Counted from the first letter of the stretch, positions 1 through 60,227 are shown. The stretch: 61,276 bases of DNA from Elusimicrobiota bacterium (GCA_026388075.1 JAPLKN010000145.1:1-61276), one strand, 5' to 3'. Numbers and translations are program-made. The notes: generated from the sequence alone by a model not told the origin.

Positions 1-3000
1 AAAGATTTTGACGCAATCGTTAAATCTCCCCAAGAACATACCGACCAAATAGAAAGGTTAAAATATTTTAAACAACTAAATATTTTAATTGACCCGGTAC
101 AAAATATATTCATCCGAATAAAGAATAAGCCAAAATCCGATTCGCTCGCAACGCTCTATGTAGGTAACGAAATAGCTTCTGAGATTCGCTTTGATAATGA
201 CGGACCCGTACCAGTAATTTTAGACACGTTGGCGGTTTCAAAATGGCGCAAAAAAGGGCTGACGCAATGGCTGCTGCTTTATTTATTTTTATATTCTGTA
301 AATATTTGTGATGTAAAAATAGTCAGGACAAATGCAATCACCGGCACTAACGGGCTTCCGGAAAACCTATGGAAAAAATATAATGGGACCGGAGCGCAAT
401 TCTACAAAACGATACAGGAAATTGCCGTCAAGGGGGTCCATTTTGAGCTTTCTATTGCCGGAATTGGATATGCAGAATTTAATCTGAAAGAAATAAATTA
501 TGATAACTGGAGAAAATATCTTGAAGAACATAAGCCTTTGTCAGCTATTGTAAAGGGTAATCAGAAAGAAAACGATGCGGCTGCAACGCTTCCTTCAACT
601 TACGACAATTTCATTTTGAAACTTCAAGAGGATCCGGAGTTTTTCAAAAAAGCGCTCAATAAGTGTTATCCCGATAATATAAACAGTACAAATGAAAAAG
701 AATGGGCAAAAGCCGCAAATAAAATGACCGAAGAACGGCTGCACAATGTTCTTGCAGCTATTAAGAATTTGGGAGAGAATTGGTGGAAGGATGATGTTAT
801 TAATTTAGTAAAAGACGCAGCAATTAGAGAGGATCTTATAATTCTGCGCCGTATCTGCCAAATATATTATGCTCCTGTTAGTGAAGCATTGCAGTTGATT
901 AGTCTCGCGAAAAGAGCATTTAGAAAGGTGCTTTCAATAAAGTCAAAATCAAAAAAAGTGATAAAGGAAGCCATAGCAAAAGCGATAACGGAAGTTGCGG
1001 GTATATTTGTGGAGAAGCACGGGTCGCAAACTGAAGTAGAAAGGGAAATAAGATTGCAGGGTGTAACGGACATATTGAAAGCAATATATTTGGGGATAGA
1101 TGAGGCAGTAAAAACAGCAGGTAAAGCAGTGCTTGGAATAGATAAAATTTCCGAAAAAGTATTTAAAATTGCCGTAGAAAAACACAGGGAATATAACAGA
1201 AGCCATCCCGAAGCGCCGCTGAGTAGAAATATAGCTAACGTGAAAAAGGCGGAGATTCTCGGTTATGATGAATATGCAGGCAAAGTTCTCGGTTACTATA
1301 GAGCGCGAAAGGGGCTTATTGATGCCATCAAAGATGGGGATATTAAGGCTTATAGATCGGATTATCAAAAAATTTTGGATTGCGCGATAGCAATCAAACA
1401 GTCATATATGAATAAACAGATTGATCTTAAAGCTGTTGTTAAGAAATTGGCGGGAGAAGGAAAACTCAGAGAATTTTATATCAAGGTTAAGAGAAAAGAA
1501 AACCTTGTCGCCCTTGGACAGTGGGACGAGATTTTACACTCGGCAGGGGATAAATTCAGCATCGAGCAGAAGCAGTGGATCGAAGAAACAGCTGACAAAA
1601 TAATTGCGGCGTTTCCTCAAGATCGGCAGAAATCAATTTTAGAGAAAAAGAATGAACTTATCGGAGATACCGTTCCATTTTCTTTAAAGCAATATGCTTT
1701 TTTCAAACCAAAACGTGTAGAACAAGCATTGGGTCAGTGCAGAAATGAAGGTGAGCGGGAAAGGTTCGCACAGGATGCTGAGGATATTTTGTATGAAGAA
1801 GCCACTTTTGAAAAAGGTGGCCACTATGGTTCAACAATGCGGTATCCTGGGCCGAATCCTGTACCCATGATAATCATGCGTGCTACGAATAATGAAGCCA
1901 TTTTCGTGGCTGTTTACATCCATGAAATAATCCATTATCTAGCTCTTAAAGGCATAATTGGTATTCCAGCCAGCGTTGAGATCGTAGGACACGTACTGTC
2001 AACGATAGAAAAAGCAGTCTACGACGACGGCCGGAAAGCGACGGAAGAGATTTTGTTCAATGCCGGACTAGAATGGCAAAGGAATAATCCGGATACCGAA
2101 ATTACAGTGATGGAATTAAACCAAGCGACACATGATACTATCATACAAAACTGGGAAAGATTGGGGCTATCATCGCTTTCAGATGCCCAGTATTTGCTGT
2201 TTAACGAGACTGCTGGACGTACTTCGGGAACTTTCCTTGGGGGCATATTTTGGGCAAGGAGCCGCGGTGACGAAGCTACAGCGCTCAAGTCTGCAATCGC
2301 TTGGATGGACACCTTTATAGCGACTAATGCCAACAACGTTCCTCTTTTGTATGTCGACCCCGATTATCTTATTGCAGAAAAAAAGGGTTTGACTGAAAAA
2401 TGGGATAAATTAAGGACAAGAAATTTAATTCGCACTCTTACAGATTGTGCGGCAGGTCACGACCCTAATTACTTAAGAACCATAAACGAAGGCATAAGGC
2501 CCGTATGGAAAAAGACAATCGAAGATGACGGCTGGACACTGGATGCTGCAAAGAAGATAGCGACAAAGGGTTCTGATGGAAAATGGGACGCTAAACCCGG
2601 CTGGGAAGTTGTTGTTGAATTGCTAAATACGCGGAAAAATGGCTCTCCGCTTTTGACTATCCCAGGCACTTACATCGCTTTTGCCAAAGAGCTTTTTGAG
2701 AAAACTGTCTCTAAGAGCAAAAAGCTTGCGAGAAGTTGGAACTACCCTAACGACATAAACAGCACAAGCGAAATAGCCTGGACCAAAGCCAAAAACAGTG
2801 TTAACGGTTGGTCAAAGGAGCGAAGACTTGCTGCGGTAAACTGGATGCATGCAAATAGTGGTGATTGGTGGAAAAAGATAGATGCAGTAACGAAAGAAGA
2901 CCTACCTCAGCTAACCCAGGAACAATTCAATCAATTAATAAATGATGTCAAAATTCTTCGCCGTATCTCTGAGATTAATTTTGCGCCAGAACATGAAGCA

Positions 3001-6000
3001 CCGGAATTGATAAAACTTGCGAGGGATGTATGGAATGCGGTAAAAGAAGGGATCAATTTTGAAAAAGCCTTAGAACTGGCCGCAATTATGTTTGTCGGGA
3101 AACATCAAAATAAAAGCAACGCAGTTCGTGATGAGCGTATTGAAGGAACAAAGAGCATAATAAGGGCCATTCTGGACGAAGTAAACAAAACAGTGGACAA
3201 TATATTTGGCTCAGCGGTTAAAATTACTAACATTTCCTGTGACATATGGCGAATTGCCGTAGAAAAGCACAAGGAATATAACATTGCCCATCCCGAAGCG
3301 CCGCTGACACAGTCAAGCAAAGAAAGCGGGACAAAAAAATTAAAAGACGTCTTGAATAAAATAATAGGGCCAGATAAATTCCAGCTTGAATACCGATCTG
3401 ACGGGAGTTATATTGTAACGATAGATGCGGCAGATATAACTGAAGGAAATGCAAAAAAGTTGAAAGCGTTAAACATAAAGATAGCCTTAACAGGGGTAAA
3501 AGAATGGGCAGATTATATGGCAGTAATAGCAGAAAATATAGAAGAGTTGGAGTTAACACAAGTAAAAGACATAGCTTTTATAAGGGGACTGAAACAGTTA
3601 AGAAAACTGAAAATCAGTGATTCGAAAATAGAAGATTTAAGTTTGTTAGCTAAGATAACAAGCCTAGAGAGTATAGAGCTTGAAAAGTTGGGAAAGCTGA
3701 GAAACCTGAGTCTCAGCGAACACATGAAAATTCAAAGTGTGAAGTTAAAGAATCTAAGGAATTTGGAAATGATTGACCTTAGTTTCTCGGGGATACAAAA
3801 GCTTGATCTTGGCGAAGGCCTTAGGGAATTGGAAGAACTTAATCTTCGCTCGTGTAAAAATCTTAAAAGTTTGAAATTAGAAAACCTAAGCAGTTTAGAG
3901 AATATTGACCTTCAAGAATCAGGGATAGAAACGCTTGAACTTGGCGCTGATCTTGGGGAATTGAAGAATCTTGATTTTAGCTGGTGTAGCAATCTTAGAA
4001 ATTTGAAGTTAGAAAATTTGAATAGTTTGGAATGGATTAGCCTGAGGGCATCAGGAATAGAAAAGCTTGAACTTGGCGAAGGCCTTGAGAAATTGGAAGA
4101 ACTTAAACTCAATAAATGTAAAACTCTTAAAAGCTTGAAGTTAGAAAACCTAAGCAGTTTGGGAAGAATTGCCCTTGAAAATTCAGGGATAGAAACACTT
4201 GAACTTGGCGAAGGCCTTGGGGAATTGGAAGAACTCGATCTTTCTGAATGTAAAAATCTTAGAAGCTTGAAATTAAGAAACCTAAGCAGTTTAGAGAATA
4301 TTGACCTTCAAGAATCAGGGATAGAAACGCTTGAACTTGGCGAAGGCCTTGGGGAATTGAAAGTACTTGATCTTCCCTTTTGTGAAAATCTTAAAAGTTT
4401 GAAATTAGAGAACCTAAGCAGTTTAGAGAATATTGACCTTCAGGAATCAGGGATAGAAAAGGTTAAACTTGGCGAAGGCCTTGGGGAATTGGAGGAACTT
4501 AATCTTCGCTCGTGTGAAAATCTTAAAAACTTAAAATTAGAAAACCTAAGCAGTTTAGAAGAAATTGACCTTCAAGCATCAGGGATAGAAACGCTTGAAC
4601 TTGGCGAAGGCCTTAGGGAATTGAAAGTACTTGATCTTCACTTGTGTGAAAATCTTAAAAGTTTGAAATTAGAGAACCTAAGCAGTTTGGAAGCGGCTGA
4701 CCTTGAAGATTCAGGAATAGAAACGCTTAAAGTAGGAAAGATCAGTGTCAAATTAGGAAAATTTCCAAGGGAATATTTGAATGAAATGGTTTCGTGTTGG
4801 TTATTATTGCTAAAGAAAAAAATAATTGATAGCCCAAAGAAAATATGGGATGATTTAGTCAGCATTTTAAATCTCAGTTCCGGTGTGGAAAAGAGGATTC
4901 TTTCAGCTATCAAAGAACTTTCGCCGATGATTGAAAAATATCCCCAATCGTGGAACGAACTAATTAAACCGATAATTTATAACCAAACGCAAGGCGCATT
5001 CCTTTCATTGGAAGCAGTTAAAAAACTCTATGATATGAAAGCAATTCAAACGGACAAAGATATGGAGTTTATTAAAACATTGATTATGGAACAAAGCTTT
5101 GGAGCATATAACACATTGAAGAATTTTATTATAAAAGGAATTGAAGGGAAAGAAAAGATTATAACTCTTCCGTTTTCGGTTAAAGAAGGAGTAACCGGTC
5201 AAGAAAAGTTGACAGATGAAGCGATAAAGATTATGAAATTCCTTAAAGAGATTGAATACCCTATTTTAGAAGTTTATAAGGTTTATAAAGATCCTGCAAG
5301 GAAAAAAGAAAAGGAGGGTTTGTTATCAAGGTGCAGGAATATCCATAAAAAAATAATGGATGGCGATGTGAGCGAGGTTGAGAAAGATCCATTATTCGTA
5401 CCCATACAGTACTACGTGCTTTCTCCCGAAGCAACTATGGAAGAAGCAATGTATGAAAATCTTAACGAAACCCGTCCGGACAGGAAAGAGGACACCAAAG
5501 CGCTAGAACGAGCGGTTGTGAGATGGAAGCCTATCCAATGGAGGAAATTTGAGGCTAGTGTTGGAAATTATAAGCTGAAAGATCCTTCCGAGCCTTTGAA
5601 TTCTACGCCTTGGGGAACAATCTTGAAAGTAGTAAAAGAGGTGAATAAAGAAGAAAAATCAACATTTAAAGAAGAAGAAAAGAGTAAGCTGGGAAAAGAA
5701 CTGATTGAAATATTGAAGAATAAGGATTGGAGCAGACACGGCGAAGAGGATATTAAGAAATGGGAAAATAAACGGGAAGAGATAATTAAGCAGTTATATC
5801 GGTTGTATAGGAGCAATGGATTTAGCCTGCCGGAAAATTTAAATACCATAGAGCATATAATGAATCATAAACAGTTTGTCGGAGATACACTAAGAGACTT
5901 AATCAATGAAGCGGTAAACGCCTATAGAAAAGGAAGCGAAACCAATGAGAAATATTATCAGGAGAGTATGGGAAATCTTTATAGAACCAAGATTAAAGAT

Positions 6001-7989
6001 CCTGCAAAGGGAGCCAAAATAATCCTTGGAATTCTTAAAAATGAAAAGATAGAAGAACCGGTTAAGAAAGAGAGGATTGGGGGAATATTGGGGATAGAAG
6101 AAGGCGTGCTGGATATGGTATGGGAAAAAATTAAAGAAAAAAAGGAGTTGGGAAAGATAGAAGAGGTATTATCAGGGATAGAGTTTAAAATCCAGCAAGG
6201 AAAAGAAGCGCTAGATTTAGCCCAAGTTTTGCAGGGGGAAGAATACAAACAGATGCAGGGAGAAGTAAACGCTAAGTATGAATTCAATGAGGGGAAAGAT
6301 AAGTTAAAATTAAGATTTCTGGTTTCAAAAAGAAAAGGGCACGGGGTGGCAGGATACAATATGGGGGTTTGCGTTGCTCCTGACAAACAATTATGGAATA
6401 ATCCCAATTTTATGAATGCAATCATTTGGGATGAGAAGGGCCTTGCAATGGGCGGTTTCCATATACTGATTATTGAAAATGAAGGAAAGAGATACTTAAC
6501 GCTTCCCGGGATAAACCCCAGCAGTAAACTGCTTGCGCAGGTTGCGGCAGATTCCATATTTGATGAAATTATCAAATATGCACACGATGTGGCGAAAGTC
6601 TTGAAGTGTGAAGAGGTTTTAATTCCTTCAAATTCAACAATCCATTCCAACCGCTCTGAGATTCAAAGAGTGATTGCCTCAAGAGAATATGAAAAGAAGA
6701 TGCTAAAGGAAATTCAGCCTTTTAGTTATTCCCCCTATAAATACGAATTTCAAGAATGTTTAGTTGTTCCGCCTATAAAATCTAAATTCTGGAAAAATGT
6801 AGCTTTGGTATTACGTGAATACATCCCGTCATTATTGCCCCATTTTTATGAGAAACACTTCAAAAAGGGAGAGGTCCCCACCGGCGAGGAGAAGGCTTCC
6901 GACCCCAGGATAAAAGGCATAAGGGAGATGCGAAAAGCCGCGATAATCCCGTTTCCTTTTTATGGCGTCAGCTTGCTTGGGCTTCTTGTTCCCTGGGGAG
7001 CAATAATTATTTGGCTTACGATAATAGCAGTAACAATTGCATCAATATCATACAGCGGAAAGAAACATTTGGAGTTTAACCGCGAGCATCCCGATAAGCT
7101 TTTGACAAAATATAATCAGGCTAGTGGTCCTTCAAAAAAACGCCTGGGTGGAAACAAAATAACAAATATTCGCCAACCTTTAACGCCAAAACAACAATTA
7201 GACTTTTACTCAAAGCCAAACCAAGAAGCAATATTATTTAAAAAGGCAATTAAAACAATTGATCCATTGAATGAAAATATTACTGCTCTGGAGAAAGAAG
7301 AGCTGGTTAAGAATTATAAGAAAATAATTGAGAACAATCTGGATCTGGCATTAATAGAAATATCACGAGTTAATGGAGATAGGGGAACAATTTATATAAA
7401 AGTTAATAAAAATGGTATGCCGGAAATAATTCAGATGGCGTATAACAATGACGGAAAAACATACATAAAAAGCAAGTTTGATTTTAAGAAAAAAATCTCC
7501 AATTTAGAATCTAATGAACAGGCCGAATTAAATAAACATTTATTGGATTACAATCCTTTAGGTAATGACGCATTGATTATGAGCGATTTTGATATTTCAG
7601 TTTCAGCGCCGGTATTTCAGCTTGAATACACGAGTTCCTATTATAAGGCATTGGAGCTGTTTTATTATATTTATATGAATTTAACAGGAAGCGGCGAAAT
7701 AAGAGAAATTGAAAATATAATAAGAAAGGGAAAAGACGATTACGCATATTATAAAATACCCGCAAATATAGAAGTAATTGTGATAAATAAAGTTCCTTAT
7801 ATTGTTGGTTTCGGATTAAAAGAAGTGGAAAGAAAAGGGGAGCAAATCCTTGATAGAACGCCTTTTGACGATTTTAACTTTAAGGAAGCTCGGTCTGAAG
7901 ATGCGAAAAGAGGAATTGCAAAAAGTGAACTGAAAAATTTGTTAAAGGGACTTATTGATAAGAGTTCTTTTTCACTAACCGACAAATAA
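1..7989 (+). CDS. Giant mosaic protein A, 5-prime partial (at least 2662 aa in window). It contains a duplicated helical module, an HEIIH zincin-like motif, a 44-aa LRR array, a region paralogous to ORF E and a C-terminal TM pair.
   Basis: The frame of the ORF-track call 229..7989 has no stop from nt 1 to TAA 7987-7989. Position 229 is only the first TTG, so the gene almost certainly continues upstream of the window. Hydrophobic pair AAIIPFPFYGVSLLGLLVPWGAIIIWLTIIAVTIASI lies at about 6937-7055. Confidence 0.85.
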   Translation, partial: KDFDAIVKSPQEHTDQIERLKYFKQLNILIDPVQNIFIRIKNKPKSDSLATLYVGNEIASEIRFDNDGPVPVILDTLAVSKWRKKGLTQWLLLYLFLYSVNICDVKIVRTNAITGTNGLPENLWKKYNGTGAQFYKTIQEIAVKGVHFELSIAGIGYAEFNLKEINYDNWRKYLEEHKPLSAIVKGNQKENDAAATLPSTYDNFILKLQEDPEFFKKALNKCYPDNINSTNEKEWAKAANKMTEERLHNVLAAIKNLGENWWKDDVINLVKDAAIREDLIILRRICQIYYAPVSEALQLISLAKRAFRKVLSIKSKSKKVIKEAIAKAITEVAGIFVEKHGSQTEVEREIRLQGVTDILKAIYLGIDEAVKTAGKAVLGIDKISEKVFKIAVEKHREYNRSHPEAPLSRNIANVKKAEILGYDEYAGKVLGYYRARKGLIDAIKDGDIKAYRSDYQKILDCAIAIKQSYMNKQIDLKAVVKKLAGEGKLREFYIKVKRKENLVALGQWDEILHSAGDKFSIEQKQWIEETADKIIAAFPQDRQKSILEKKNELIGDTVPFSLKQYAFFKPKRVEQALGQCRNEGERERFAQDAEDILYEEATFEKGGHYGSTMRYPGPNPVPMIIMRATNNEAIFVAVYIHEIIHYLALKGIIGIPASVEIVGHVLSTIEKAVYDDGRKATEEILFNAGLEWQRNNPDTEITVMELNQATHDTIIQNWERLGLSSLSDAQYLLFNETAGRTSGTFLGGIFWARSRGDEATALKSAIAWMDTFIATNANNVPLLYVDPDYLIAEKKGLTEKWDKLRTRNLIRTLTDCAAGHDPNYLRTINEGIRPVWKKTIEDDGWTLDAAKKIATKGSDGKWDAKPGWEVVVELLNTRKNGSPLLTIPGTYIAFAKELFEKTVSKSKKLARSWNYPNDINSTSEIAWTKAKNSVNGWSKERRLAAVNWMHANSGDWWKKIDAVTKEDLPQLTQEQFNQLINDVKILRRISEINFAPEHEAPELIKLARDVWNAVKEGINFEKALELAAIMFVGKHQNKSNAVRDERIEGTKSIIRAILDEVNKTVDNIFGSAVKITNISCDIWRIAVEKHKEYNIAHPEAPLTQSSKESGTKKLKDVLNKIIGPDKFQLEYRSDGSYIVTIDAADITEGNAKKLKALNIKIALTGVKEWADYMAVIAENIEELELTQVKDIAFIRGLKQLRKLKISDSKIEDLSLLAKITSLESIELEKLGKLRNLSLSEHMKIQSVKLKNLRNLEMIDLSFSGIQKLDLGEGLRELEELNLRSCKNLKSLKLENLSSLENIDLQESGIETLELGADLGELKNLDFSWCSNLRNLKLENLNSLEWISLRASGIEKLELGEGLEKLEELKLNKCKTLKSLKLENLSSLGRIALENSGIETLELGEGLGELEELDLSECKNLRSLKLRNLSSLENIDLQESGIETLELGEGLGELKVLDLPFCENLKSLKLENLSSLENIDLQESGIEKVKLGEGLGELEELNLRSCENLKNLKLENLSSLEEIDLQASGIETLELGEGLRELKVLDLHLCENLKSLKLENLSSLEAADLEDSGIETLKVGKISVKLGKFPREYLNEMVSCWLLLLKKKIIDSPKKIWDDLVSILNLSSGVEKRILSAIKELSPMIEKYPQSWNELIKPIIYNQTQGAFLSLEAVKKLYDMKAIQTDKDMEFIKTLIMEQSFGAYNTLKNFIIKGIEGKEKIITLPFSVKEGVTGQEKLTDEAIKIMKFLKEIEYPILEVYKVYKDPARKKEKEGLLSRCRNIHKKIMDGDVSEVEKDPLFVPIQYYVLSPEATMEEAMYENLNETRPDRKEDTKALERAVVRWKPIQWRKFEASVGNYKLKDPSEPLNSTPWGTILKVVKEVNKEEKSTFKEEEKSKLGKELIEILKNKDWSRHGEEDIKKWENKREEIIKQLYRLYRSNGFSLPENLNTIEHIMNHKQFVGDTLRDLINEAVNAYRKGSETNEKYYQESMGNLYRTKIKDPAKGAKIILGILKNEKIEEPVKKERIGGILGIEEGVLDMVWEKIKEKKELGKIEEVLSGIEFKIQQGKEALDLAQVLQGEEYKQMQGEVNAKYEFNEGKDKLKLRFLVSKRKGHGVAGYNMGVCVAPDKQLWNNPNFMNAIIWDEKGLAMGGFHILIIENEGKRYLTLPGINPSSKLLAQVAADSIFDEIIKYAHDVAKVLKCEEVLIPSNSTIHSNRSEIQRVIASREYEKKMLKEIQPFSYSPYKYEFQECLVVPPIKSKFWKNVALVLREYIPSLLPHFYEKHFKKGEVPTGEEKASDPRIKGIREMRKAAIIPFPFYGVSLLGLLVPWGAIIIWLTIIAVTIASISYSGKKHLEFNREHPDKLLTKYNQASGPSKKRLGGNKITNIRQPLTPKQQLDFYSKPNQEAILFKKAIKTIDPLNENITALEKEELVKNYKKIIENNLDLALIEISRVNGDRGTIYIKVNKNGMPEIIQMAYNNDGKTYIKSKFDFKKKISNLESNEQAELNKHLLDYNPLGNDALIMSDFDISVSAPVFQLEYTSSYYKALELFYYIYMNLTGSGEIREIENIIRKGKDDYAYYKIPANIEVIVINKVPYIVGFGLKEVERKGEQILDRTPFDDFNFKEARSEDAKRGIAKSELKNLLKGLIDKSSFSLTDK
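664..1230 (+). repeat. Internal duplication in ORF A, copy 1 (YPDNINSTNEKEW ... ILRRICQIYYAP ... IAVEKHREYNRSHPEAPL)
   Basis: Alignable by eye with 2743-3310. The 56-nt core at 1171-1226 differs from 3253-3308 at only a few positions. Confidence 0.7.
1830..1990 (+). other. Zincin-like HExxH module (RYPGPNPVPMIIMRATNNEAIFVAVYIHEIIHYLALKG)
   Basis: HEIIH is encoded at 1921-1935. The same layout (YPG..., short beta-like stretch, hydrophobic run, HExxH) recurs in ORF C (24239) and ORF D (49853). Confidence 0.4.
2743..3310 (+). repeat. Internal duplication in ORF A, copy 2 (YPNDINSTSEIAW ... ILRRISEINFAP ... IAVEKHKEYNIAHPEAPL)
   Basis: Paralogous to 664-1230, offset about 2080 nt. Confidence 0.7.
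3754..4745 (+). repeat. Tandem 132-bp (44-aa) leucine-rich repeat array, about 7.5 units, inside ORF A
   Basis: The CTA codon of L-S-S-L-E-N-I-D-L recurs at 3754, 3886, 4018, 4150, 4282, 4414, 4546 and 4678, exactly 132 nt apart. The unit is LSSLENIDLQESGIETLELGEGLGELEELDLSECKNLKSLKLEN, with a Cys-containing LxxLxLxxCxxL half. More diverged LRRs extend back to about 3540. Confidence 0.9.
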
Positions 7990-8019
7990 AAGGAAGAGTT
8001 TATCAAGAAATTTGATGAA

Positions 8020-11000
8020 ATGCCGGGAGAAACTATTTTAAATAATGCGATTGAGCAGTTTAAGCAAGAACAAAGCAAAAAAGATGAATCGTTGTCGGGA
8101 AGCGAAACCGCGGAAACAACAGTTGCAGGCCAGGAACCCGAGAAATCGCATGAAACACTAGACGAGACGAAAAGCCAATTATTAAGCCAAGAAACACCGA
8201 CCGATGACGAAATCATAGATTTTCTTGATAAAAACGGAGAATTGTTAAAAGCGAATAATGTTAAATTAATTGAGGCGGACGACATATTATTAAAATTTAG
8301 AAAAGACAACCATCGTCTGCCGGATTTAAAAGAATTTAAAAATGAAATTGAAGTCATAAAGAAATTCCGTGAAAAAAACAAACAATTATTAACAGATCAA
8401 CATATTTTGAGCAGTGACGAACTTAATGTTCTAATTAAGTTCGAAAAACAAAATAATTATATTCCGGAAAAAGTAGAATTAGAAATCGCGATAGCATTTG
8501 ATGCGCACATTAAAGAGAGAAACCCCAATGTACCGGGGACACTTATACCAACTAAAGACCAGGTGGATACGATCAAAAGTCATGTCGGTCCAGGTTTTGG
8601 TGCTAAAAAAGCCGTAAGATTCCAGCTTTCAAGATGGAAATGGCTGACCAACAAACCGATGACAAAACCTGCTACTTATGATAAATTTCGTTCAGTTTAC
8701 AATCTCTTTTACAGGTCTAAGCCTCTTCCGGAGAACTGGCAGGGCTTGGCGCAGTACGCTAAACTGAAGAGAAAAGTGGAAATCTTTTTTGCGCCTTTTT
8801 TTGAAGTATTTAGTTTTGTGTTTAATCCGGTCGGATTTTTGCGTGCCCATACACCTGCAAAGGCAAGGAAAATAGGCGTTGCAGTAATCTGGAGTTCAGC
8901 CGTTGGCATGGGAATGGTGCCTTGGGTGATACTTGGTATCAGCTGGATAGCTTTGGGCTGGAGTATTTTAGCGGTATTTTTATCAAATATGATTTTACAT
9001 TCAATTTATAATATCTTTTTTGGAACTGGAACAAAGGCAAATGCTCCGCTGGCAATTGAAATTAAAGATGAAAACGCTGCGAGAGAGCTTATAAAAACAA
9101 AATGCTATGAAAAATTCGGACATCAACCTGAGGACTGGGAAACTGAAATGATTCTAGATGCTTTAAAGTGTAAACCGAATAATACCGCAATAGGCGACGC
9201 TATTGAGAATTTCTTAAATCATGAGCAAGAACTTCGAAATCTATTCATAAAAAAGTTTCATCAGCCACCAATGCCTGGGGAATTAGAGGTCTTATTTAAT
9301 ATTACGGCTGCTGCCGACGATGATAAATTCTCAGAAACCGTAGGCCAACTGCTTGAAGAAACAGGAAAAGCTGAACTGGAAAAATTAGTTGTACGCAAAG
9401 AAATAAAAGTTTTGTTTGCAAAGGAGCTGAATAATATATATGAAAAGTATCTTTCCGTAACTAATATAGAAAAAAATGAATTTATTCGGAGTTTGAGCAT
9501 CCAATACGAAGCTAATTTGAAAACTGAGGAACACACGGCGGTTTTCAAAGATTTGGTTTCTAATTTAAAATTGGATGATTCAACTAAATTACTCATTCTG
9601 AAAAAAATCATATTTTTAGCGTATTTTTTACCTATAAAAGTAAAAAAACATTTTGAAGTAACTGAAGAACCTGTTGAATATGCCGGTATGTATCTGGTAA
9701 GAGTGAAAAAAATAGGAAAGGCCGGCTCAGAAAAAACGCTTGTTGTCCCTTTAAACGATTCAGCAGAAGCCAAGCTCGCGCTTGAAGTGGCGGTGTATGA
9801 AACACTGGGCGGATACGGGGGAATTCCTATAATAGAAAAATTCTATGGGGCAGATGAGTATGGCGCTCTAGCACTTCTTTTTGACCAAGTTGTTGACTTA
9901 GATACTTTTACGATGACATTTGAGCTTGTGAATTCGTATATCAACCGAAAAAAAGGAGAAGGAAAAATAAAATATGAGGAAATAAAAAAAGCAGTTTTGA
10001 GCGACATTGAAATTGTTAAAAATAAAACTAAACTTCCTCCCGGGAAAATAAAAGCATTAATATTTATGGTAATAAGTTATTATGCCGCTCAGGATGATAA
10101 AACTTTTGAAGAAAGTCTTGAAGATGTTTTATCATCAAAGAAAATTCAAGAAGCCGTGGGGCGGCAGCTGACCAAAGTGTCTACATATGACAAATTTTGT
10201 CCGGTTTATAAACTTTTTACCGGCAAAGAATTGCCTAAAGGTTGGCAGGATTGGCTCAGATATTCCGCTCTTAAGAGAAAAGTGCAAATCTTTTTTGCGC
10301 CTGTTGTTGAAGTATTAAGTTTTGTGTTTAATTCAATAGGCTTTTTACTAGACCATTTTGAAAGAAAAACACAAAGAAGCCTTGTTTTTGAAATATTTTT
10401 AATTGCATTAAGTTTTGCTATAGGGCTTTTATTCCCGATGCAATGGATTGCGGTAGTAGGACTATCTTTAAGCAATATTTTAAACGGAATTTATAGTTTA
10501 ATCGTTAAAGCGAACTTGGAAAAAAATATAGGATCTGTTAAAAAAGGCATTGAAGAACTGAATAAACTGGAGCTTGCGAAAAATCCGCCTTTGGAAGAGT
10601 TCCAGACATTGAGTAATATAATTGAGAAGATGAAGCCTGAAGTTTTGAAAAATCAGAAAATATTGTCGGCTATAGCAGAAAAAATTGATGTGATAATCGG
10701 AATAAGAAAAGATTCTTTCGGAGAAGAACAGCCGGCTTTGCGGACAATATTTGGCGCAAACTCTTCTATTAGTAAGACAATTTGCACGATAATTAAAACT
10801 ATTTATGCAGACAGAGACATTGATAAATATGATTTAAGTTACAGAATAGGTAAAATTATGGAAAATGAACAAAAAGATTTCTATAACAAGAAAACATTTT
10901 CAGAATTCGGTAAAGATGAAATATGGACATCGGAGTATGTAATCGGAATGGCAAAAAGGCAAAAATTTGTTGATATGGTAAATTCTGCAGTAGAAAAAGA

Positions 11001-13463: not shown

Positions 13464-13492
13464 TTGACAGAATCTGCGTTTTTAGGTATAAT
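13464..13492 (+). promoter_or_regulatory. Perfect sigma70-type promoter, TTGACA-N17-TATAAT
   Basis: TTGACA at 13464-13469, a 17-nt spacer, then TATAAT at 13487-13492. It lies in the 450-nt gap between ORF B and rpmH, about 300 nt upstream of the rpmH ATG. Confidence 0.6.
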
Positions 13493-13791: not shown

Positions 13792-13929
13792 ATGGTTAAA
13801 CGCACATTTCAACCAAACAGAAGGCACCGCAAAAAAACTATCGGTTTTCGCGCCAGAATGAAATCTAAAGGCGGAAGAAGAGTATTAAGCGCGCGCAGAA
13901 GAAAGGGCCGGAAGATACTGAGCGCATAA
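13792..13929 (+). CDS. rpmH: 50S ribosomal protein L34
   Basis: [45 protein letters not shown] (45 aa) is a canonical L34 sequence. AAGGA lies 7-8 nt upstream of ATG 13792. The ORF-track start at 13720 is an in-frame upstream extension. Confidence 0.95.
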
Positions 13930-47170: not shown

Positions 47171-47335
47171 AAGAAGAGCGAACAAATTGAGCCTGAAAAA
47201 ATAAAAAAGAGGACGTCCAAAAACAATCAAGCCGAAGTTCTGAAAAGGTTAAATAAAGGCATTAAATCCCACGGCGGAAAGCCGGCGGCAAAAGAGAACA
47301 GAAAACCCTATGTAGAGGACACGAACCAGAGAAAA

Positions 47336-56500: not shown

Positions 56501-59500
56501 GGACGAGTTGCTTGATCTTCTCTATGGAATAATTAAAATCAAAAAAGAGCTTGCTGATGCATATCTCTCAAAACATTATGGATTTGAAACAAACAAGGAA
56601 GATGAAGAGTTTGACGGGCAATATAAGGAAATGACTTATGAAGCATTCATTAGGTTAAATTCGGTCATGAAATTTGCAGAGAAGCGAAAGATTAACGGCG
56701 AAGGTTTGCGCAAACTCTACATTTGGTTTACTGATCATCTTTTCATTTTTTCCCACAGCTTGCATACGGCTTATCTCGTTTCAAAGAAAACAAAACAAAC
56801 AATGATCAAGAATATCATAGATTCAATAAAGGACACGGCAGAAGAAATTAAATCTGAAATATTGTCTTTTCAAAGATCAGGGATTGTTAGAAAAGATTTG
56901 GATTGTAATAAATTAACAAAAAATGATGTAGATAATATTTTCTCAGGAAACGCGGATTATTTGGAAGATGGTACTATACAGAAAGTGTTGAGGATTATGA
57001 TAGAAAATGGAATTGATATTTCATTTGATGGTAAGACGAAAGAAAACATCAAGTTGGAAGATAAATATGAAATTCCAGCGGAAGATGAACGGTTGAAAAA
57101 AATATTTGGATTGGAAGGGAAAGACAGTGCAGTTGAGATATGGAAAGATGAACAAGGAAATATCGTTTCTGACTGGTTTTCAAAAACAGAAAGAGACTAT
57201 TTACGGCAAATTGCTATTGAAATCGGACAGGAAAAATTAAAGCAGGTTGAATTATTTGACAAACCAATCGGTGAGAATAGAAAAGACATAGAGGAATTTC
57301 TCCGTAAAATTGACCAGAAGATTAACATATTCTCTTGGAACGATTTGATGGATGAAACTGTAAGTATGATAATTTTGGCAGTAGAGAAGGGAATTGCTAA
57401 GAATCTGCGAGATGCTATTGCCGAAATGCTCGGGTATAAGTTAATTAATAATTCAGTAGAGTATTTTAACAATGAAAAAATGAATAAATTCTTAAAAATT
57501 CATTATAAAGCATATTTTCGCCTGCTTGCATTCAAGAGTTTAATTAATAGTTGTCTTAATGTCTATGCTAAAGGATGTGGCGAGAAAATCGAGAAAAAGA
57601 TTAGTAATCTATTGTCTGGGGTCAAAATCGGGATCAAATATGAACTCGAAACTTCACAAGACGGAGCGGAGACTCGTTTATTTAATCGTTCATTTTCCTT
57701 TATTAGTGCAAATAATTTATTGCTCCTTCCCTATGAAATTTGGCATGAATCAATTCACTTACTATTAAATTTCCACAAAAAAGATTTTAAAAATGAATCT
57801 TTGACAACAGCTGGGAGTTATTTATTTTTTAAGATTCTTGCAGATCAGAATCCTGCTTTAAAAGATATTTTCAATTTAATGGCTTTAGTGGAACGTCAAG
57901 TTATGAAAGAAGGGGATGTTTATAAATTGATTAGCGAATATGCTAATCCGCGTCAAGCGTTTCTATACAGTGCTTTTGAAAAGTTTTTGTTCAATCAAGG
58001 ACTGCCAAAGGATATCCTATCACGGTTTAAAATGTTCAGGCACTTTGTTGAAGGTAAAAAGGATTTTTGGATTGACGACATTCTTGAGATTATCCAGAAA
58101 AAAGATACGTCAGATTTTTTAAAAGATGCCGTTCGTAGTTCTTCAAACATCAAAAGAATGTTTCAGCATACAAGACTGCAAGAAATATTTAAGATTATTG
58201 TTATGCCGGTTGCATTAATTGCTTTTTTAACGAAAAAATCAGAGATAGGGGCAAAACTTGGAAATTTATTTAGGGCGGCGAGAGTTCAAAAGACTGCTCT
58301 TCCTTCAGCCTTTTACTATTGTTTAAATTCAGAAAACTTAAATGATAATATGGCTAATAGATTGCTGGATCAAAATTCTAAAGGAGCAAACAATATAATT
58401 GTAACTGTTGCGGACCACGAAAAAATTATACAAGGCCTTAATCAAAGGGATGTTAGTTTGCCTAGGAAAATTTCAGTTGAAGGCAGACTGTGCAAAATAT
58501 GGATAAAGTCGGTTTGGAAGGATGATGCTTCTTCTATTGAAATAATTTATGTTGAGCCAAGAGCGGGAGCCGAGGTTGCCTTAAATAATGCTTCAGTTGA
58601 GGTTATAAGGGAACTTTACGGTGACGGAATTAGGGAGGGAGATCCTGCCATTAAAAGAACAATCAATGAAATGCACAAAGGAGAAACGGGTTTTAAACCT
58701 GCAATAATATTCAATGATACCGGCAAAAAGCCGTCATCTTTTGAGGATAGATGTGAAAAAAGAAGCATGGGGGCTGAATTTAAAACTTTAGAAGAAAGCA
58801 GAATAAAGGATTTTAAAGAATTCAAGGCGGCTGAAAATCAGAAGAATCACGAAAGATTTGTTAACGGCAGATATTTCATATTAAGTGCGTCAGTAAAGGG
58901 ACAGAATAAAAGTGAGATTTTAGAAGCTATTAATACTTTGGCAAGAATCGGCGCCGTAAATATAAGGCTAAGGGATCTTTCTTCAGATTTGTCGGAAAAA
59001 GACTTAGAAGATATAGTTAAATACTGCCACGATAGCGGTGTTGATATTCTTTCGGATCTCGATGTTTCTGATATTGATACAAAAGCTGATAAACTTGGCA
59101 GGGCTGGTTTCAACGGTTTCGAACTGGATCTGTCAAATTTTGAAGGAGATCCCGTGGAAGTTTTAGACAAAGCAATGAAGAATTTTAAATCCGCTTCTTC
59201 AATAATAACGATTAAATTAAAGAAAAAAGAAGATAGGGCATTGTTCAAAGGAATTGACGGAGTAAAATTTGTTAAATTTCAAGGGACAGCAATTGACGGT
59301 AAGTTGGACGCTGAAGAAGACGAATGCCTTTTTATTACTGATCCGGAAAAAGTGAAAGAATTCAAAGCCGGTATGGTAGAAATTCCTGTTGAATCTCTGG
59401 TCGGTGATACGGCCGGTTTTAAATTTTTGGTTTTTGCTATGGGTGTGGATTTCTATCAAAGATGCAAAGAAAAATTTGCAAAACTAAAAGCCGTATTTAA

Positions 59501-60227
59501 GACAACACCTGAAAAAGAATATGATTCTGCTTATATGTATGAAAAAGAAGATCTTCCCGATATAGAACTGTGGATAAAAATAAAAGAATTACTGGAACAG
59601 GAAAAGTATTCAAAAATTAAGGCTTATTTGACCGTCTTTAAAAAGGATTTAAACGAAACGGATATTGAAGAAGTAAAAATGTTTGCAAAGGATCTTGAAC
59701 AGGCAGGATGGGTTAAAGAAAGGAAATCTTATGCGAGGTTTGGAGAACTTTCAGAAAAAATTGCTGGATATGGGGCTACGGTTGAAAATATAGTATTGTT
59801 TATGGCGTTTATTAAAGCTGTTTTTGAGATGACACTTATCAAGGATGACCTTTTGAATAATACTAAAGGAAAATGGATGTTTTCTAATTTCAAACATTGG
59901 AAATTGTTTGGGCAGATACTTTTGAAAAGGGAATTTTTGGAATCTGAAGTGGTTTCAAAAATAGATAACAATTCGGAAGTTGTTAAAATAATTGACCAGA
60001 TAGATTCTGCTTTTTCAAAGGGATATACTGAGCAAAATCTATCTAAGTTGTTTGATGAAAGTGTTGTAAAATTAACAAAAATGACAGAAGATGGTGTGCC
60101 CGGAGCCATGAGCGGATTGATAAAAATCTTGAGGGTTTACTCTGATTCCAAGATACAAATAAAAATTGAAAAAATGCATGAAAATACGATTATAAATTCA
60201 GTGAAAGATATGCTAGGGGCCGCTTAA
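50514..60227 (+). CDS. Giant mosaic protein E (3237 aa). Order of modules: N-third paralogous to the ORF A C-half, two junction/adaptor cassettes, two HExxH motifs, then a C-terminal region of about 600 aa paralogous to the ORF B C-terminus.
   Basis: Uninterrupted 9.7-kb ORF. The tracked start is GTG 50514 without an SD. The frame is open for a further 48 codons upstream (from 50370). Confidence 0.85.
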   Translation: MLGWIGTEENLVNIARDILRAIKYGFKDIEIIDEEGGSIRGSPELFRKIKYLKETFGKEFISDKWADIMAMAGKDKKSEFYICEYLSKLGERCGAEFVKDNWQTILRLIETAEAEGVDPGSLLEYGLPALKEILTKENLMQIGEELIRYGVDAGDEKSFYYGLFKLRELITGDNYIRVFEGLSRINCSGSERKIKMKDVYEKFTEIFNGTITFDNYENILKDFIEFVFTLQGKVPEKCISGLLIALSPVIKEQGQQIVFEEINEIMSLCADSSPKILQAISDLSNLILKNYGKAVNTWDELIRPVVMTQAKKSSRILEEIKALYDLGALEKAEDLNGLRELIKINGIESYNILHEFLVPGIKDKIISKNLSKELVIVNKYVAEVQCPILDVYKKYLENPEKVAEIAKHLPEFMDKFHLANIGLDAGRRFDENLFRTEYVVYSISLEELMPGSIKHMISVLNSVIKDKGNPNVVIRYLDSKKAALNDPKAAEVVNRIKMSILGKLEIRSRKLVIGEKEKALAAIDLQLDDYKKIDFNKMPEKKRKNLETKYKNLPIQRDALAKELKTIRKIGDKKWKKEETERVIQKGLRCINLTIFNQEIIDKVSSIVELGSTGWLLENIDGIMEYTFETSENSIEDRMYALKNELVKRGFLGNLAKMLGIEETNIALGAYDKIDYENAPKLSQALKFLKENVSRQEYDMYKEYLKAMLEDRVWDFIENKSQKSRIGREIASQNEHERKMMIEEGINVDRWLGGRQVEGGRDSGLRFGDGQFMYYEKSSYEYDPIGDALRAINYLRDIMNRNAFIKDQEAGTKAIKVLEDMGLSVVCDSRNKIARFEVNKKMPQPPKDIVEVMCKIENLERLTSLTDEVGANTKLASDIKISEWVPELKQVLAVLKTNLSKEGKKYIQELEKQRKSFIIRPMKREPGRDLFIGDKTSCCLAMTSTTYPRAMFERLIDEGMNVIEVIDEATGKTMACSWLYISEDEYLTINNMEIHREYGKIAPLKETVGEEMIKYAQRFAKYIGAKKFIVGKPGHGEYIDYVAKKYKNKLVELPEMLGKIGGSIYDIEYYLDSATKTKQAYIIKDFEKKPLGIPVTEYMPEEVDKVVSLGKKPEIAVARAAIKGARELLQGITEAESLSVKLANWLIGKASGLSIEELSKMEESSFLDTLIQASISIQEALAKMFELGKVEEKNLTDEERAYGGTIQSRAEKQLNAKVNLVVSDNPDLIPPEGDAYSLSTIIENADGSYTIYVHRAFFKGLKNKKSQERKELLEQLAIHEIGEYEYLLANPGKNYQDYHKTLAGDKKQQKLLEYGKEAKLYENIVKNVNESESESAIDRGADIAAAYHEIYLQKTNIDILRHISEDPETRAELRIYAFSLLCSNYQIKSDFSQEDLVKISEELELIAVDEISKLLKSNREDWNRNFVKAENWLQNEKLRMYSMTVFLASEFGFIKRNKKEILKGEDMRELYYEIGNTEFSSRAEQTGIGIRIPQKTITDKNAEGVLLELCHEISHSAQECVYGIANEYGSLTLDALAETVSELSVLDFMQKFNINIEEWQSVLDWPYEKHFEEAVRDKYFMSSPHAAARAFLFMVLDLSKQYNIPVDWGIFKLKFISNLRNVVFSEICIKTMADYWKLENPGVYINRLREYSKNTVVEKEISYGYNEWVEPVLTQKVLIPPRFIMEELIKDIQENQKYEKNTSLGEKPEIAVARAAIKGAKEALLGIIEAESLSVKLANWIIGKSGLSVEELSKIEENSLLDTLIQLSISVQEALAKMFELGKVDEEKLTNKEKTYVEIIRSHAEKQLNAKVNLVVSDNPDLIPPEGDAYSLSTIVKEADGSYTIYVHRAFLKGLENKTSSEREELLEQLAVHEIGEYKFLQANPGKTYEDYHKTLAGNKKQQKLREFAKNIAVEVGSNGEKFKVFISKAVAVKERIRENGFINSIKDSNWTKELHSNSSYSAGWDMSNMKDDEIRLCFDILKRLGVDIYQYSRKKDELLDLLYGIIKIKKELADAYLSKHYGFETNKEDEEFDGQYKEMTYEAFIRLNSVMKFAEKRKINGEGLRKLYIWFTDHLFIFSHSLHTAYLVSKKTKQTMIKNIIDSIKDTAEEIKSEILSFQRSGIVRKDLDCNKLTKNDVDNIFSGNADYLEDGTIQKVLRIMIENGIDISFDGKTKENIKLEDKYEIPAEDERLKKIFGLEGKDSAVEIWKDEQGNIVSDWFSKTERDYLRQIAIEIGQEKLKQVELFDKPIGENRKDIEEFLRKIDQKINIFSWNDLMDETVSMIILAVEKGIAKNLRDAIAEMLGYKLINNSVEYFNNEKMNKFLKIHYKAYFRLLAFKSLINSCLNVYAKGCGEKIEKKISNLLSGVKIGIKYELETSQDGAETRLFNRSFSFISANNLLLLPYEIWHESIHLLLNFHKKDFKNESLTTAGSYLFFKILADQNPALKDIFNLMALVERQVMKEGDVYKLISEYANPRQAFLYSAFEKFLFNQGLPKDILSRFKMFRHFVEGKKDFWIDDILEIIQKKDTSDFLKDAVRSSSNIKRMFQHTRLQEIFKIIVMPVALIAFLTKKSEIGAKLGNLFRAARVQKTALPSAFYYCLNSENLNDNMANRLLDQNSKGANNIIVTVADHEKIIQGLNQRDVSLPRKISVEGRLCKIWIKSVWKDDASSIEIIYVEPRAGAEVALNNASVEVIRELYGDGIREGDPAIKRTINEMHKGETGFKPAIIFNDTGKKPSSFEDRCEKRSMGAEFKTLEESRIKDFKEFKAAENQKNHERFVNGRYFILSASVKGQNKSEILEAINTLARIGAVNIRLRDLSSDLSEKDLEDIVKYCHDSGVDILSDLDVSDIDTKADKLGRAGFNGFELDLSNFEGDPVEVLDKAMKNFKSASSIITIKLKKKEDRALFKGIDGVKFVKFQGTAIDGKLDAEEDECLFITDPEKVKEFKAGMVEIPVESLVGDTAGFKFLVFAMGVDFYQRCKEKFAKLKAVFKTTPEKEYDSAYMYEKEDLPDIELWIKIKELLEQEKYSKIKAYLTVFKKDLNETDIEEVKMFAKDLEQAGWVKERKSYARFGELSEKIAGYGATVENIVLFMAFIKAVFEMTLIKDDLLNNTKGKWMFSNFKHWKLFGQILLKREFLESEVVSKIDNNSEVVKIIDQIDSAFSKGYTEQNLSKLFDESVVKLTKMTEDGVPGAMSGLIKILRVYSDSKIQIKIEKMHENTIINSVKDMLGAA
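53835..54480 (+). repeat. Junction + adaptor cassette head, copy E1 (SLGKKPEIAVARAAI ... DNPDLIPPEGDAYSLSTI...YTIYVHRAFF...HEIGEYEYL)
   Basis: The junction is at 53835-53879 and HEIGE at 54348-54362. By eye about 80% nt identity to copy E2 over about 650 nt. Confidence 0.85.
54500..55400 (+). other. Zincin-like domain with HEISH
   Basis: GVLLELCHEISHSAQECVYG, with HEISH encoded at 55044-55058. Paralogous to ORF C 35500-36300. Confidence 0.35.
55620..56260 (+). repeat. Junction + adaptor cassette head, copy E2 (SLGEKPEIAVARAAI ... DNPDLIPPEGDAYSLSTI...YTIYVHRAFL...HEIGEYKFL)
   Basis: The junction is at 55620-55664 and HEIGE at 56130-56144. Confidence 0.85.
57600..57900 (+). other. Additional HExxH motif region (LLLPYEIWHESIHLLLNFH)
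   Basis: HESIH is encoded at 57744-57758. This is a motif-only call. Confidence 0.25.

Follow-up and report, generated by a model that had tools for sequence, protein, structure and literature searches.

Five giant open reading frames around the rpmH-yidC operon of an Elusimicrobiota bacterium may form two units of a head-M1-tail protein family

Five giant open reading frames (ORFs) lie around the rpmH-yidC operon in a contig of Elusimicrobiota bacterium (GCA_026388075.1, JAPLKN010000145.1:1-61276), raising the question of whether they are five genes or the parts of fewer and larger ones, and what kind of protein they encode. The whole stretch of 61,276 nucleotides (nt), which makes up the entire contig, was analyzed and is referred to here as the window. 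The ORFs, all on the + strand, are G1 (1..7989; at least 2662 amino acids, aa, open at the contig start and 5'-truncated), G2 (8020..13341; 1773 aa), G3 (19610..47170; 9186 aa), G4 (47429..50401; 990 aa, listed at NCBI as MCX5782612.1), and G5 (50514..60227; 3237 aa, corresponding to NCBI MCX5782613.1). They sum to 53,559 nt, or 87.4% of the window, and the co-oriented cluster around the operon that an initial annotation had described was thus borne out by the ORF calls. Because stop codons occur at a frequency of 8-10% per codon in the other frames inside G3, chance is ruled out as the origin of ORFs this long. The giant frames are coding now, or were until very recently.

The initial annotation took these ORFs for five genes of one mosaic, recombining family. 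The mosaic relationship holds, since a single ORF of 7085 aa from another genome (P0018) carries modules of the G2, G3, G4, and G5 types in a different order. The count of five probably needs revision, as the family architecture and the three junctions between the ORFs point to two head-to-tail units. In this organization, which we favor as the joint main explanation with slightly better than even confidence, unit A would comprise G1 as its front part and G2 as its rear part (at least 4,445 aa, with a tail on G2 and one in-frame TAA break). Unit B would run from G3, its front part, through G4 to G5, its rear part (approximately 13,500 aa, with a head on G3, seven copies of a module termed M1, and a tail on G5), with two breaks, an in-frame TAA and a +1 frame change. 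Both would be members of a family that is recognized by its head, M1, and tail.

In an exhaustive HMMER search, the M1 profile matched 51 of 1.84 billion representatives, mostly of 2,000 to 7,232 aa; a word-indexed search with the same profile found no relatives. Among 20 M1 proteins that were looked up, 14 were named, all as Elusimicrobiota, Endomicrobia, or Endomicrobiales, and these include G4 and G5, so that 12 are independent. Hidden Markov models (HMMs) of the head, M1, and the tail were scored on 49 external M1 proteins. The head was found in 24 of the 49, always at the N terminus, starting at residue 31 or earlier, or at residues 185 to 189 where an N-terminal extension is fused to it. 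The tail, present in 17 of the 49, always reached the last residue, and head, one to three M1 copies, and tail occurred together and in that order in 13 of the 49; family proteins carry one to four M1 copies. In the window, the models placed the head solely at the N terminus of G3 and the tail solely at the C termini of G2 and G5, and M1 is present in seven copies. Overall, these results place the giants in a rare Elusimicrobiota family with fixed ends and a variable middle.

The junctions bear directly on the number of genes, and at each of the three a continuous coding sequence seems to have been interrupted. At the G1/G2 junction (7987..8019, + strand), a lone in-frame TAA is followed by 10 open codons and then by the ATG of G2, with no Shine-Dalgarno sequence ahead of it. 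A word-indexed search with an 810-aa query from the end of G1 and the start of G2 gave no match. At the G3/G4 junction (47168..47428, + strand), a lone in-frame TAA lies in a linker rich in lysine and glutamate (K/E-rich) and is followed by 86 codons without a stop, ATG, GTG, or TTG. Over 86 codons, the absence of a stop has a probability of 1e-4 to 4e-3, not counting the 1/3 chance of a shared frame. In addition, the array of ~82-aa repeats of G4 starts at 47331, that is, 98 nt upstream of the annotated ATG. At the G4/G5 junction (50370..50513, + strand), 48 open codons precede the GTG of G5 in its own frame, which overlaps the last 32 nt of G4, and a +1 shift anywhere within 50370-50401 would fuse the two ORFs. 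The starts of G2 and G4 lack an AGGAGG-like site; such sites precede yidC, jag, and the insertion sequence (IS) gene of the window. Judged from the sequence, the breaks would be compatible with sequencing error, tolerated fission, recoding, or early decay.

The family head was assigned by its HMM to aa 189-768 of G3 (20174..21913, + strand), where a signal anchor precedes an alpha/beta core with a helical insertion of ~330 aa. This domain of ~550 aa has strong homologues in 15 stand-alone proteins of ~900 aa (E values down to 5e-123) and forms the N terminus of many M1 giants. Its invariant residues, D74-L75-H76, E104-G105, and G504-G505-F506-H507 (DLH…EG…GGFH), lie at strand ends. An AlphaFold model (predicted local distance difference test, pLDDT, of 79.6) showed the alpha/beta core split by the ~330-aa helical bundle. 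Neither profile nor sequence comparisons of the head with PDB and Pfam gave a significant match, and Foldseek against PDB gave none at E<0.01. Presumably, the order of its motifs (the His of IQDLH, the Glu of VEGA, and the His of GGFH) likens the head to the Ere/ChaN/TIKI hydrolases, which is a guess of ours and not a significant match. A further head-bearing protein (P0012, NT145_05865; partial, 426 aa, 39% identical to the G3 head) is present on another contig of the same metagenome-assembled genome (MAG), so the family is multi-copy in the source organism.

In G3, the head is preceded by an N-terminal extension (aa 1-187; 19610..20170, + strand) of two hydrophobic segments plus a loop rich in lysine and arginine (K/R-rich). 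This extension is fused in-frame to the head in G3, P0018, and P0011. In two distant relatives, L025 (9396-9896) and L031 (9349-9894), a gene for a small membrane protein of 166-181 aa directly precedes the head gene; the L025 ORF is homologous to G3 aa 39-156, and the L031 ORF was matched by position only. The small membrane protein is a conserved partner. At the seam between the extension and the head signal anchor, within the G3 coding sequence (codons ~169-181), there is a terminator-like hairpin (20115..20148, + strand) with a GC-rich stem of 10 bp, a 4-nt loop, and a T-run, TTTTTTATTT. L028 has the same U-run and, but for one G·U change, the same stem. The hairpin could act in attenuation or pausing, or be left over from an earlier intergenic terminator.

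The M1 module spans ~220-230 aa, and its seven copies in the window are 25-79% identical. Four are in G3, namely, G3a (30959..31666), G3b (34742..35434), G3c (36638..37414, in which HE is replaced by QE), and G3d (37877..38614); one is in G4 (48056..48769) and two are in G5 (53814..54473 and 55563..56258; 79% identical to each other, dN/dS 0.20), all on the + strand. The copies were found with the M1 HMM and in tile-wise BLASTP (E values down to 1e-105); the HMM found no copy in G1 or G2. An invariant pattern H…HExxE…H was seen, with H154, H179-E180, E183, and H199 kept in at least 90% of 32 sequences. The AlphaFold model built from these 32 sequences (pLDDT 93.6; predicted template modeling score, pTM, 0.89) combines a helical N-terminal half with a three-stranded sheet and two helices, with H154 at a strand end, H179-E180-x-x-E183 on one helix, and H199 on the helix that follows. 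The best fold match in PDB was the zinc-protease domain of BlaR1, at a weak E value of 0.28. Among viral models, ten of the top 50 matches were of zincin type (SprT-like, M48, and generic peptidase), again weak (E of 0.06-1), and domains of phage polyvalent proteins were also present. Over the two libraries, the best matches (BlaR1, SprT-like, and M48) had E values of 0.02-0.3. These observations suggest that M1 has a divergent zincin-like metal site, for which the fold is supported by the model and the activity is putative.

The assignment of enzymatic functions to head and M1 faces several difficulties. The likeness of the head to Ere/ChaN/TIKI hydrolases is based on the order of motifs and on fold matches of E~0.5, the Foldseek ranking against PDB placing erythromycin esterase EreC third and fifth at that weak value. 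M1 has HExxE, followed 16 residues on by a His, where zincins have HExxH; Foldseek of M1 against PDB and viral models gave no match at E<0.01, and the M1 profile gave nothing significant against PDB and Pfam.

The tail, of ~150 aa, was located on G2 (aa 1627-1773; 12898..13338, + strand) and on G5 (aa 3086-3237; 59769..60224, + strand). The former ends in …ILSAA-stop (13324-13338) and the latter in …MLGAA-stop (60210-60224), and an ending of the form …(I/L/M)L(S/G/A)AA at the exact C terminus is common to G2, G5, and more than 20 relatives. A jackhmmer search did not link the G2 and G5 tails; the link was shown by a shuffle-calibrated alignment and by the family tail HMM. We take the …LxAA end to be akin to the non-polar C-terminal recognition motifs of the ssrA/ClpX or Prc/FtsH type. 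In one locus (L030), ftsH lies between two family giants, one of them of 11,778 aa.

Gene order in relatives was then compared. An independent genome (GCA_042562855.1, L029) has a giant on either side of the rpmH-yidC-SLT operon, as in the window. A co-oriented, tail-bearing giant of at least 1856 aa ends 86 nt before rpmH, which is followed by rnpA, yidD, yidC, a GIY-YIG gene, jag, and the SLT/LysM gene, and then by P0018. P0018 is colinear with G3, at 39% identity over aa 1-850 and at 44% identity over aa 1469-4019 (2,550 residues). In L027 and L028, rnpA, yidC, jag, and SLT are followed by a G3 homologue that runs on into G1-like modules. The operon synteny was found in L001, L002, L027, and L029; in L001 a head-bearing giant is divergent from rpmH, in L002 there is no giant at this place, and more distant family members are not adjacent to yidC. 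In L025, the homologue of the first 187 aa of G3 (a 166-aa ORF), the head gene (904 aa), and a giant (2497 aa) are three adjacent genes. Over these loci, fusion and fission at module boundaries are recurrent in the family. In L027 (ERZ25039480 contig_27198), yidC, jag, and SLT are all frame-broken, and SLT is intact in L028, a short-read assembly of a related sample; the L027 assembly is error-prone, which makes its gene calls unfit for judging ORF integrity.

Homology among the five giants was assessed by tile-wise BLASTP, and dN/dS was calculated by the Nei-Gojobori method. The shared cassettes that had been noticed from the sequence proved to be truly homologous and not coincidences of low complexity (E values down to ~1e-106). 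A module repeated in G1 (copy 1, aa 196-465, 586..1395; copy 2, aa 886-1163, 2656..3489; both + strand) shows 32% identity between copies (E 4e-28) and also occurs in the L027/L028 giant, and its motif KEYNxAHPExPLS is found in L029up as well. A module built on a transmembrane (TM) hairpin is present in two copies in G2 (aa 210-409 versus 713-911, E 4e-23) and in two copies in G3 (aa 7225-7293 and 8701-8813). Matches across ORFs join G1 aa 1586-1762 to G5 aa 232-395, G3 aa 1412-1617 to G4 aa 665-866, and the C-terminal ~150 aa of G2 to those of G5. Paralogous modules have DNA identities of 70-83%, dN/dS of 0.20-0.53, and dS of at least 0.42, indicating that they are under purifying selection, with no sign of recent exchange. 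The description of the family as recombining is therefore not upheld: since even the closest copies have dS of at least 0.42 and are at most 83% identical, the module shuffling is evolutionary and not ongoing. Recent gene conversion among the cassettes was rejected on the same values.

How many genes, then, does the cluster hold? Several observations weigh against joining the ORFs into two units. The three breaks, seen in one assembly, may mark real ends of genes. Among full-length relatives, P0018 is closest to G3; it stops just past the C-terminal hairpin module, without a tail, and because it ends near the same place the G3 stop may be ancestral. M1 is missing from unit A, and any head that it has would be off the contig, which leaves the tail and weak motifs as the grounds for its membership. 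If the boundaries are genuine, the cluster would be five separate paralogous genes in an operon-like array that grew by duplication and the exchange of modules. Each of the five ORFs is intact, at 990 to 9186 codons, and is annotated in this way at NCBI, a plausible AGGA lies ~9 nt upstream of the G5 GTG, P0018 shows that a tail-less, head-bearing giant can be a complete gene, and L025 divides the same modules among its adjacent 166-aa, 904-aa, and 2497-aa products. However, G2 and G4 would then be without a ribosome-binding site, and the 86 in-frame codons before G4, with neither stop nor start, would still carry on the repeat array of G4. The placement of the head (on G3 only) and of the tail (on G5 and G2 only) is that of one unit in each case, and G5 alone has no signal or strong TM segment, yet its modules occur in signal-led proteins elsewhere. 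We regard five genuine genes as a less likely alternative.

Decay would leave the units as the original genes and make the breaks nonsense and frameshift mutations in pseudogenes, perhaps aided by an IS. Three disruptions in 52 kb of giant-gene sequence versus zero in six housekeeping genes would fit it, as would the IS3-type transposase at the contig end and the G3 homologue of L028, which is also broken, at about aa 430. We consider decay improbable, since the downstream fragments are open over 1773, 990, and 3237 codons, which would make inactivation very recent or bypassed, and since the paralogous modules have been under long-term purifying selection. Moreover, both TAA codons lie in K/E-rich linkers and 0/3 breaks fall inside a recognized module, as expected of tolerated fission. 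An artefact, in which chimeric assembly of repeats or consensus errors made the ORFs or the junctions, is more improbable still. The source is a single MAG contig of short-read style, with internal repeats at 70-83% identity and an IS element at its end, but the two colinear regions of G3 (aa 1-850 and 1469-4019) are matched by an independently assembled single ORF, the same gene order occurs in two other assemblies, the repeats are too diverged for collapse, and an open frame of 27 kb would not survive chimerism.

The variable middle holds the cargo. Pfam and PDB sequence searches gave strong matches to an ABC1/COQ8 kinase, three HAD domains, an AP_endonuc_2 TIM barrel, M48, LRR_5, and tetratricopeptide repeats (TPRs), all confined to G1 (leucine-rich repeats, LRRs) and G3 (enzymes and TPRs). 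G2, G4, and G5 had no match in Pfam, NCBIfam, or PDB sequences, and NCBIfam yielded just LRRs overall; roughly 70% of the giant sequence stays dark. Of the domains claimed at the outset, the kinase (as ABC1), HAD, zincin (as M48), LRR, and TPR stand; HEAT was sub-threshold in Pfam, as was Pkinase, the nucleotidyltransferase (NTase) is a motif only, and no glycosyltransferase domain was found by any search of the window proteins. The claimed absence of a SecA or Walker-A segment was confirmed, in that Pfam scans of all tiles gave no SecA and Walker-A-like strings were present at chance level only.

The LRR array of G1 (3511..4737), of BspA/internalin type and with a period of ~132 nt, matched LRR_5 (3.9e-23), LRR_EndoS (2.5e-26), and LRR structures in PDB, its DNA repeats being 79% identical. 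In G3, and likewise on the + strand, we found a kinase-like region (aa 1194-1341; 23189..23632) that was sub-threshold for Pkinase (E 7.8e-6, 25.9 bits against a cutoff of 31.7 bits), an M48-like zincin with the motif HEIRH (25247..25612; Peptidase_M48, 7.2e-8, over its cutoff), an ABC1/UbiB/COQ8-type atypical kinase (29969..30625; PF03109, 1.1e-25, with COQ8A/B matches in PDB at 1e-9), and a xylose-isomerase-like TIM barrel (31799..32458; AP_endonuc_2, 4.6e-12). These are followed by tandem HAD phosphatase domains (32696..34279; HAD_2, 4.5e-25 and 3.3e-23), TPR repeats (39533..39766; TPR_1, 9.9e-11, with PDB TPR matches at 1.6e-21), and a third HAD-type domain (41996..42376; PF00702, 5.9e-8). 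The tandem HAD cassette (300 aa) has copies that are 54% identical, with dN/dS of 0.20. Their catalytic motifs differ: the first (32696-33256) has DMHGT, with His in place of the Asp+2 general acid, and the second (33686-34279) has the canonical DVDGT, which suggests sub-functionalization or an inactive copy.

G4 (47429..50401, + strand) consists of the N-terminal ~82-aa repeats, its M1 copy, an NTase-like motif GS…DxD (48941..49228), and a TM cluster in which a HELLH lies embedded in the membrane (49472-50038). Six HExxH motifs occur in the giants, including this one within a G4 TM helix. NCBI labels G4 an "MFS transporter," and transporter families gave no match to it; the label is probably a misannotation. 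Cargo varies among family members, which carry a complete L-aspartate-oxidase-type flavoenzyme (7.7e-100), DUF218, a phosphoribosyltransferase (PRTase), and a Ser/Thr kinase with TPRs, and, in further relatives, Dus, Maf, alpha-amylase, Radical SAM, and PGM_PMM.

On which side of the membrane would this cargo lie? TM segments were identified from hydropathy, and the seven hydrophobic clusters of the initial annotation were all recovered where it had placed them. Its statement that each ORF has several holds for G2, G3, and G4, and fails for G5, with one borderline segment, and for G1, with one hairpin and a borderline segment at aa 90-108. Similarly, the giants being membrane-anchored applies to G1 to G4, which have TM hairpins or clusters, and not to G5 as a stand-alone protein, which has no strong TM segment. 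The G1 hairpin (aa 2312-2353; 6934..7059) has an uncharged PWG turn and K/R flanks. In G2, copy 1 of the TM-hairpin module, detected by hydropathy and BLASTP, is at 8872..9021, and further clusters are at 10282-10506 and 11047-11265. G3 has a cluster at aa 1440-1617 (23927..24460), with HEAYH between helices and homologous to the TM/HELLH region of G4, and two hairpins near its C terminus (45941..46300), with turns VPW and GTIT and K/R flanks. All of these are on the + strand.

Head N termini are Sec-like, with a K-rich n-region, an h-region, and an AxA-like c-region, and in 27/31 the N-flank exceeds the C-flank in positive charge; in G3, the 36-residue loop ahead of the head signal is strongly K/R-rich, as for a cytoplasmic loop. 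Across the family, 45 charge-free clusters of hairpin size have a K+R fraction of 0.247 in their flanks versus a background of 0.132, and ~80% of the bounding residues are K or R on both sides. These flanks, together with cargo that depends on ATP, flavin adenine dinucleotide (FAD), or phosphoribosyl pyrophosphate (PRPP), fit a cytoplasmic body. For the unit in the window, we lean modestly towards a topology with the head out and the body in. The head signal anchor would carry the N terminus over the inner membrane via Sec/YidC, and the single-span TM at aa 1443-1469 and the next hairpin would bring the G3 chain back. A cargo of ~7,000 aa (ABC1 kinase, HAD, TIM barrel, NTase-like, and TPR) would then lie at the cytoplasmic face, with the charge-free hairpins as membrane staples. 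Finally, the metalloprotease-like modules (M1, M48-like, and the membrane-embedded HExxH) would cut the chain between modules. Such self-processing by M1, the M48-like module, or the membrane HExxH zincin is a tentative idea that we hold with less than even confidence; it draws on the zincin-processed polyvalent proteins (PMC5512222) and on proposals made for the giants of Omnitrophota. Breaks at linkers would be tolerated in the proposed scheme, because the modules would be cut apart by built-in proteases in any case. Membrane sidedness, processing, and function of the giants are predictions from sequence.

Two points speak against placing the body in the cytoplasm. In many smaller relatives, a classical signal peptide is not followed by any further TM segment, so their M1, cargo, and tail should be exported, and the G3 span at aa 1443-1469 breaks the positive-inside rule in the proposed orientation. 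The possibility that a TM helix is concealed between head and first M1 in the relatives was rejected, because this stretch contains charged residues and its maximum hydropathy has a median of 0.9; none was found in G3 aa 215-1440 either. An alternative is that the whole chain crosses the inner membrane as an exported string of effectors, tethered by the hairpins, released by M1- or M48-like cleavage, and acting in the periplasm, at the surface, or in a host or partner, in the manner of MARTX toxins or of the polyvalent proteins of phages and plasmids. Endomicrobia, to which many named relatives belong, include intracellular symbionts. This alternative also agrees with the Sec signal peptides on the heads (27/31), with the many relatives in which M1, cargo, and tail follow the head without a further TM, with most TM clusters being of hairpin length, so that sidedness is kept, and with the G1 LRR array, which is of the internalin/BspA/XopL type. 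Precedents are found in multi-effector proteins processed by zincins (PMC5512222) and in Omnitrophota giants, which include classes with signal peptide and TM segments and with signal peptide only. Nevertheless, the hairpin flanks have about twice the background of K/R and the turns are uncharged, as is characteristic of flanks in the cytoplasm; the cargo depends on ATP, FAD, or PRPP; Pfam and NCBIfam gave no secretion-system, toxin-domain, or immunity-gene match in the window; and the number of TM segments after the G3 head is apparently odd. Full export is therefore possible but does not reach the confidence that we give to the head-out, body-in topology. The earlier view of the giants as an effector arsenal rather than an adhesin is accordingly pulled both ways, by the head signal peptides towards export and by the positive-inside statistics and cofactor-dependent cargo towards a cytoplasmic body. 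A bolder proposal would make the giants a Sec-led polyvalent class, with a hydrolase-like head, HExxE self-processing, and a …LxAA tail, that delivers cargo autoproteolytically to membrane, partner, or host, and whose gene of ~13,500 codons is kept working by recoding or reinitiation in spite of its in-frame UAA and +1 shift and is coupled to the YidC operon; we regard it as a long shot.

The housekeeping block between G2 and G3 (13792..19281, + strand; Pfam E values of 1e-13 to 1e-61) has its five operon genes in canonical order: rpmH (13792-13929; L34, 2.6e-19), rnpA (14211-14585; RNase P, 9.9e-25), yidD (14582-14797; YidD, 1e-30), yidC (15123-16676; 60KD_IMP, 9.4e-61), and jag/khpB (17110-17769; Jag_N/KH/R3H). 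A lytic transglycosylase gene with SLT and LysM domains in Pfam follows (17839-19281). A sigma-70 promoter with a perfect consensus (12/12, TTGACA-17-TATAAT; 13464..13492, + strand) lies ~300 nt upstream of rpmH, and because of it the operon is probably transcribed from its own strong promoter, independently of read-through from G2. A replication origin between G2 and rpmH was rejected, there being 20 DnaA boxes versus 16 expected and a positive GC skew throughout. The gap between yidC and jag is 433 nt (16677-17109), at the place where L029 has its GIY-YIG gene (86 aa), and no GIY-YIG remnant was found in the window. At the other end, outside the giant system, the last gene encodes an IS3-type (rve) transposase (60311..61270, + strand; rve_3, 1.1e-13, and rve, 1.3e-10, in Pfam), and the contig stops 6 nt beyond it; this element probably accounts for the assembly break. 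Rfam and tRNA scans of the window gave no match.

Giant bacterial genes are a recognized blind spot, and Elusimicrobiota are among the phyla most enriched in proteins of >5000 aa, for which no functional assignment was given (PMC11573180). G3 is such a protein, and the survey holds no family, architecture, or genomic context for it. Proteins of at least 10,000 aa have been recorded in Elusimicrobiota (bioRxiv 10.1101/2023.11.21.568195). To these records the present analysis adds a searchable family definition, by three parts that can be modeled as HMMs, and one confidently folded domain without a solved relative. For the G3 orthologue group, the position next to the membrane insertase operon is a conserved genomic anchor. 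With breaks at module boundaries, giant genes can be larger than the annotated ORF counts imply, and the arrangement bears on whether bacterial megaproteins work as single chains or as polyprotein precursors.

The initial annotation had set the cluster beside Omnitrophota. An Omnitrophota origin was rejected, since NCBI names and the nearest YidC relatives, Elusimicrobiota MAGs at 52-63% identity, place the contig in Elusimicrobiota; the parallel is an analogy and not a lineage. Omnitrophota giants include a "multi-enzyme metabolic cluster" class and a topology class with signal peptide and TM segments (West-Roberts et al. 2023, bioRxiv 10.1101/2023.11.21.568195; Nielsen & Lui 2026, bioRxiv 10.64898/2026.06.07.730766). 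Like the window giants, they have very long ORFs, many unrelated enzyme domains (HAD, kinases, and HEAT/TPR), sparse TM segments or a signal peptide, mostly Pfam-dark sequence, and repeated modules that are diverged at the DNA level, and self-processing by embedded peptidases has been proposed for them. The cargo of G3 has many enzyme families with none dominating, as in class 1 of Nielsen & Lui 2026, and G3 combines a signal anchor with TM clusters, as in their class with signal peptide and TM segments; G1, G2, and G4 contribute TM hairpins, and G5 alone has none. By contrast, the phylum is another, and Pfam and NCBIfam scans of the window giants gave no SecA_DEAD, C39, S8, dockerin, or carbohydrate-binding match. 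The annotated ORFs, the longest of 9,186 aa, also fall short of the Omnitrophota thresholds of at least 30,000 aa ("giant") and at least 10,000 aa ("large"), and the latter is passed just if ORFs are joined (G3+G4, 10,263 aa; G3-G5, ~13,500 aa).

Polyvalent proteins of phages and conjugative elements carry many enzymatic domains and embedded zincin-like peptidases that have been proposed to cut them (Iyer et al. 2017, PMC5512222). The window giants resemble these and MARTX toxins in having many unrelated enzymatic domains on one chain, and the weak fold matches of M1 include phage polyvalent and SprT-like domains. They differ in their context, which is chromosomal housekeeping conserved in three genomes, with the IS transposase as the sole mobile gene; in having a Sec signal and TM hairpins; and in a cargo that is metabolic or signaling and not of anti-restriction or toxin type. 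Concerning MARTX, RTX, and polymorphic toxins, Pfam and NCBIfam gave no match in the window to RTX repeats, a cysteine protease domain (CPD), a type I secretion system (T1SS), or toxin-immunity genes. The head may be likened to EreA, ChaN, TIKI, and TraB-PrgY for its His-Glu-His at strand ends and the signal peptide ahead, and differs in the ~330-aa insertion that splits its core. M1 may be likened to minimal zincins (SprT/Wss1, M48, and M56 BlaR1) for a three-stranded sheet followed by the HE helix and a downstream His, and differs in having HExxE…H in place of HExxH, with QE in 1/7 window copies. Taken together, as judged from their sequences, the giants match in kind the sparsely membrane-anchored multi-enzyme proteins of Omnitrophota but fail the specific markers of those. 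The Elusimicrobiota family, whose named matches are all from this phylum, is set apart by its triad of head, M1, and tail, of which no description was met in the literature searched.

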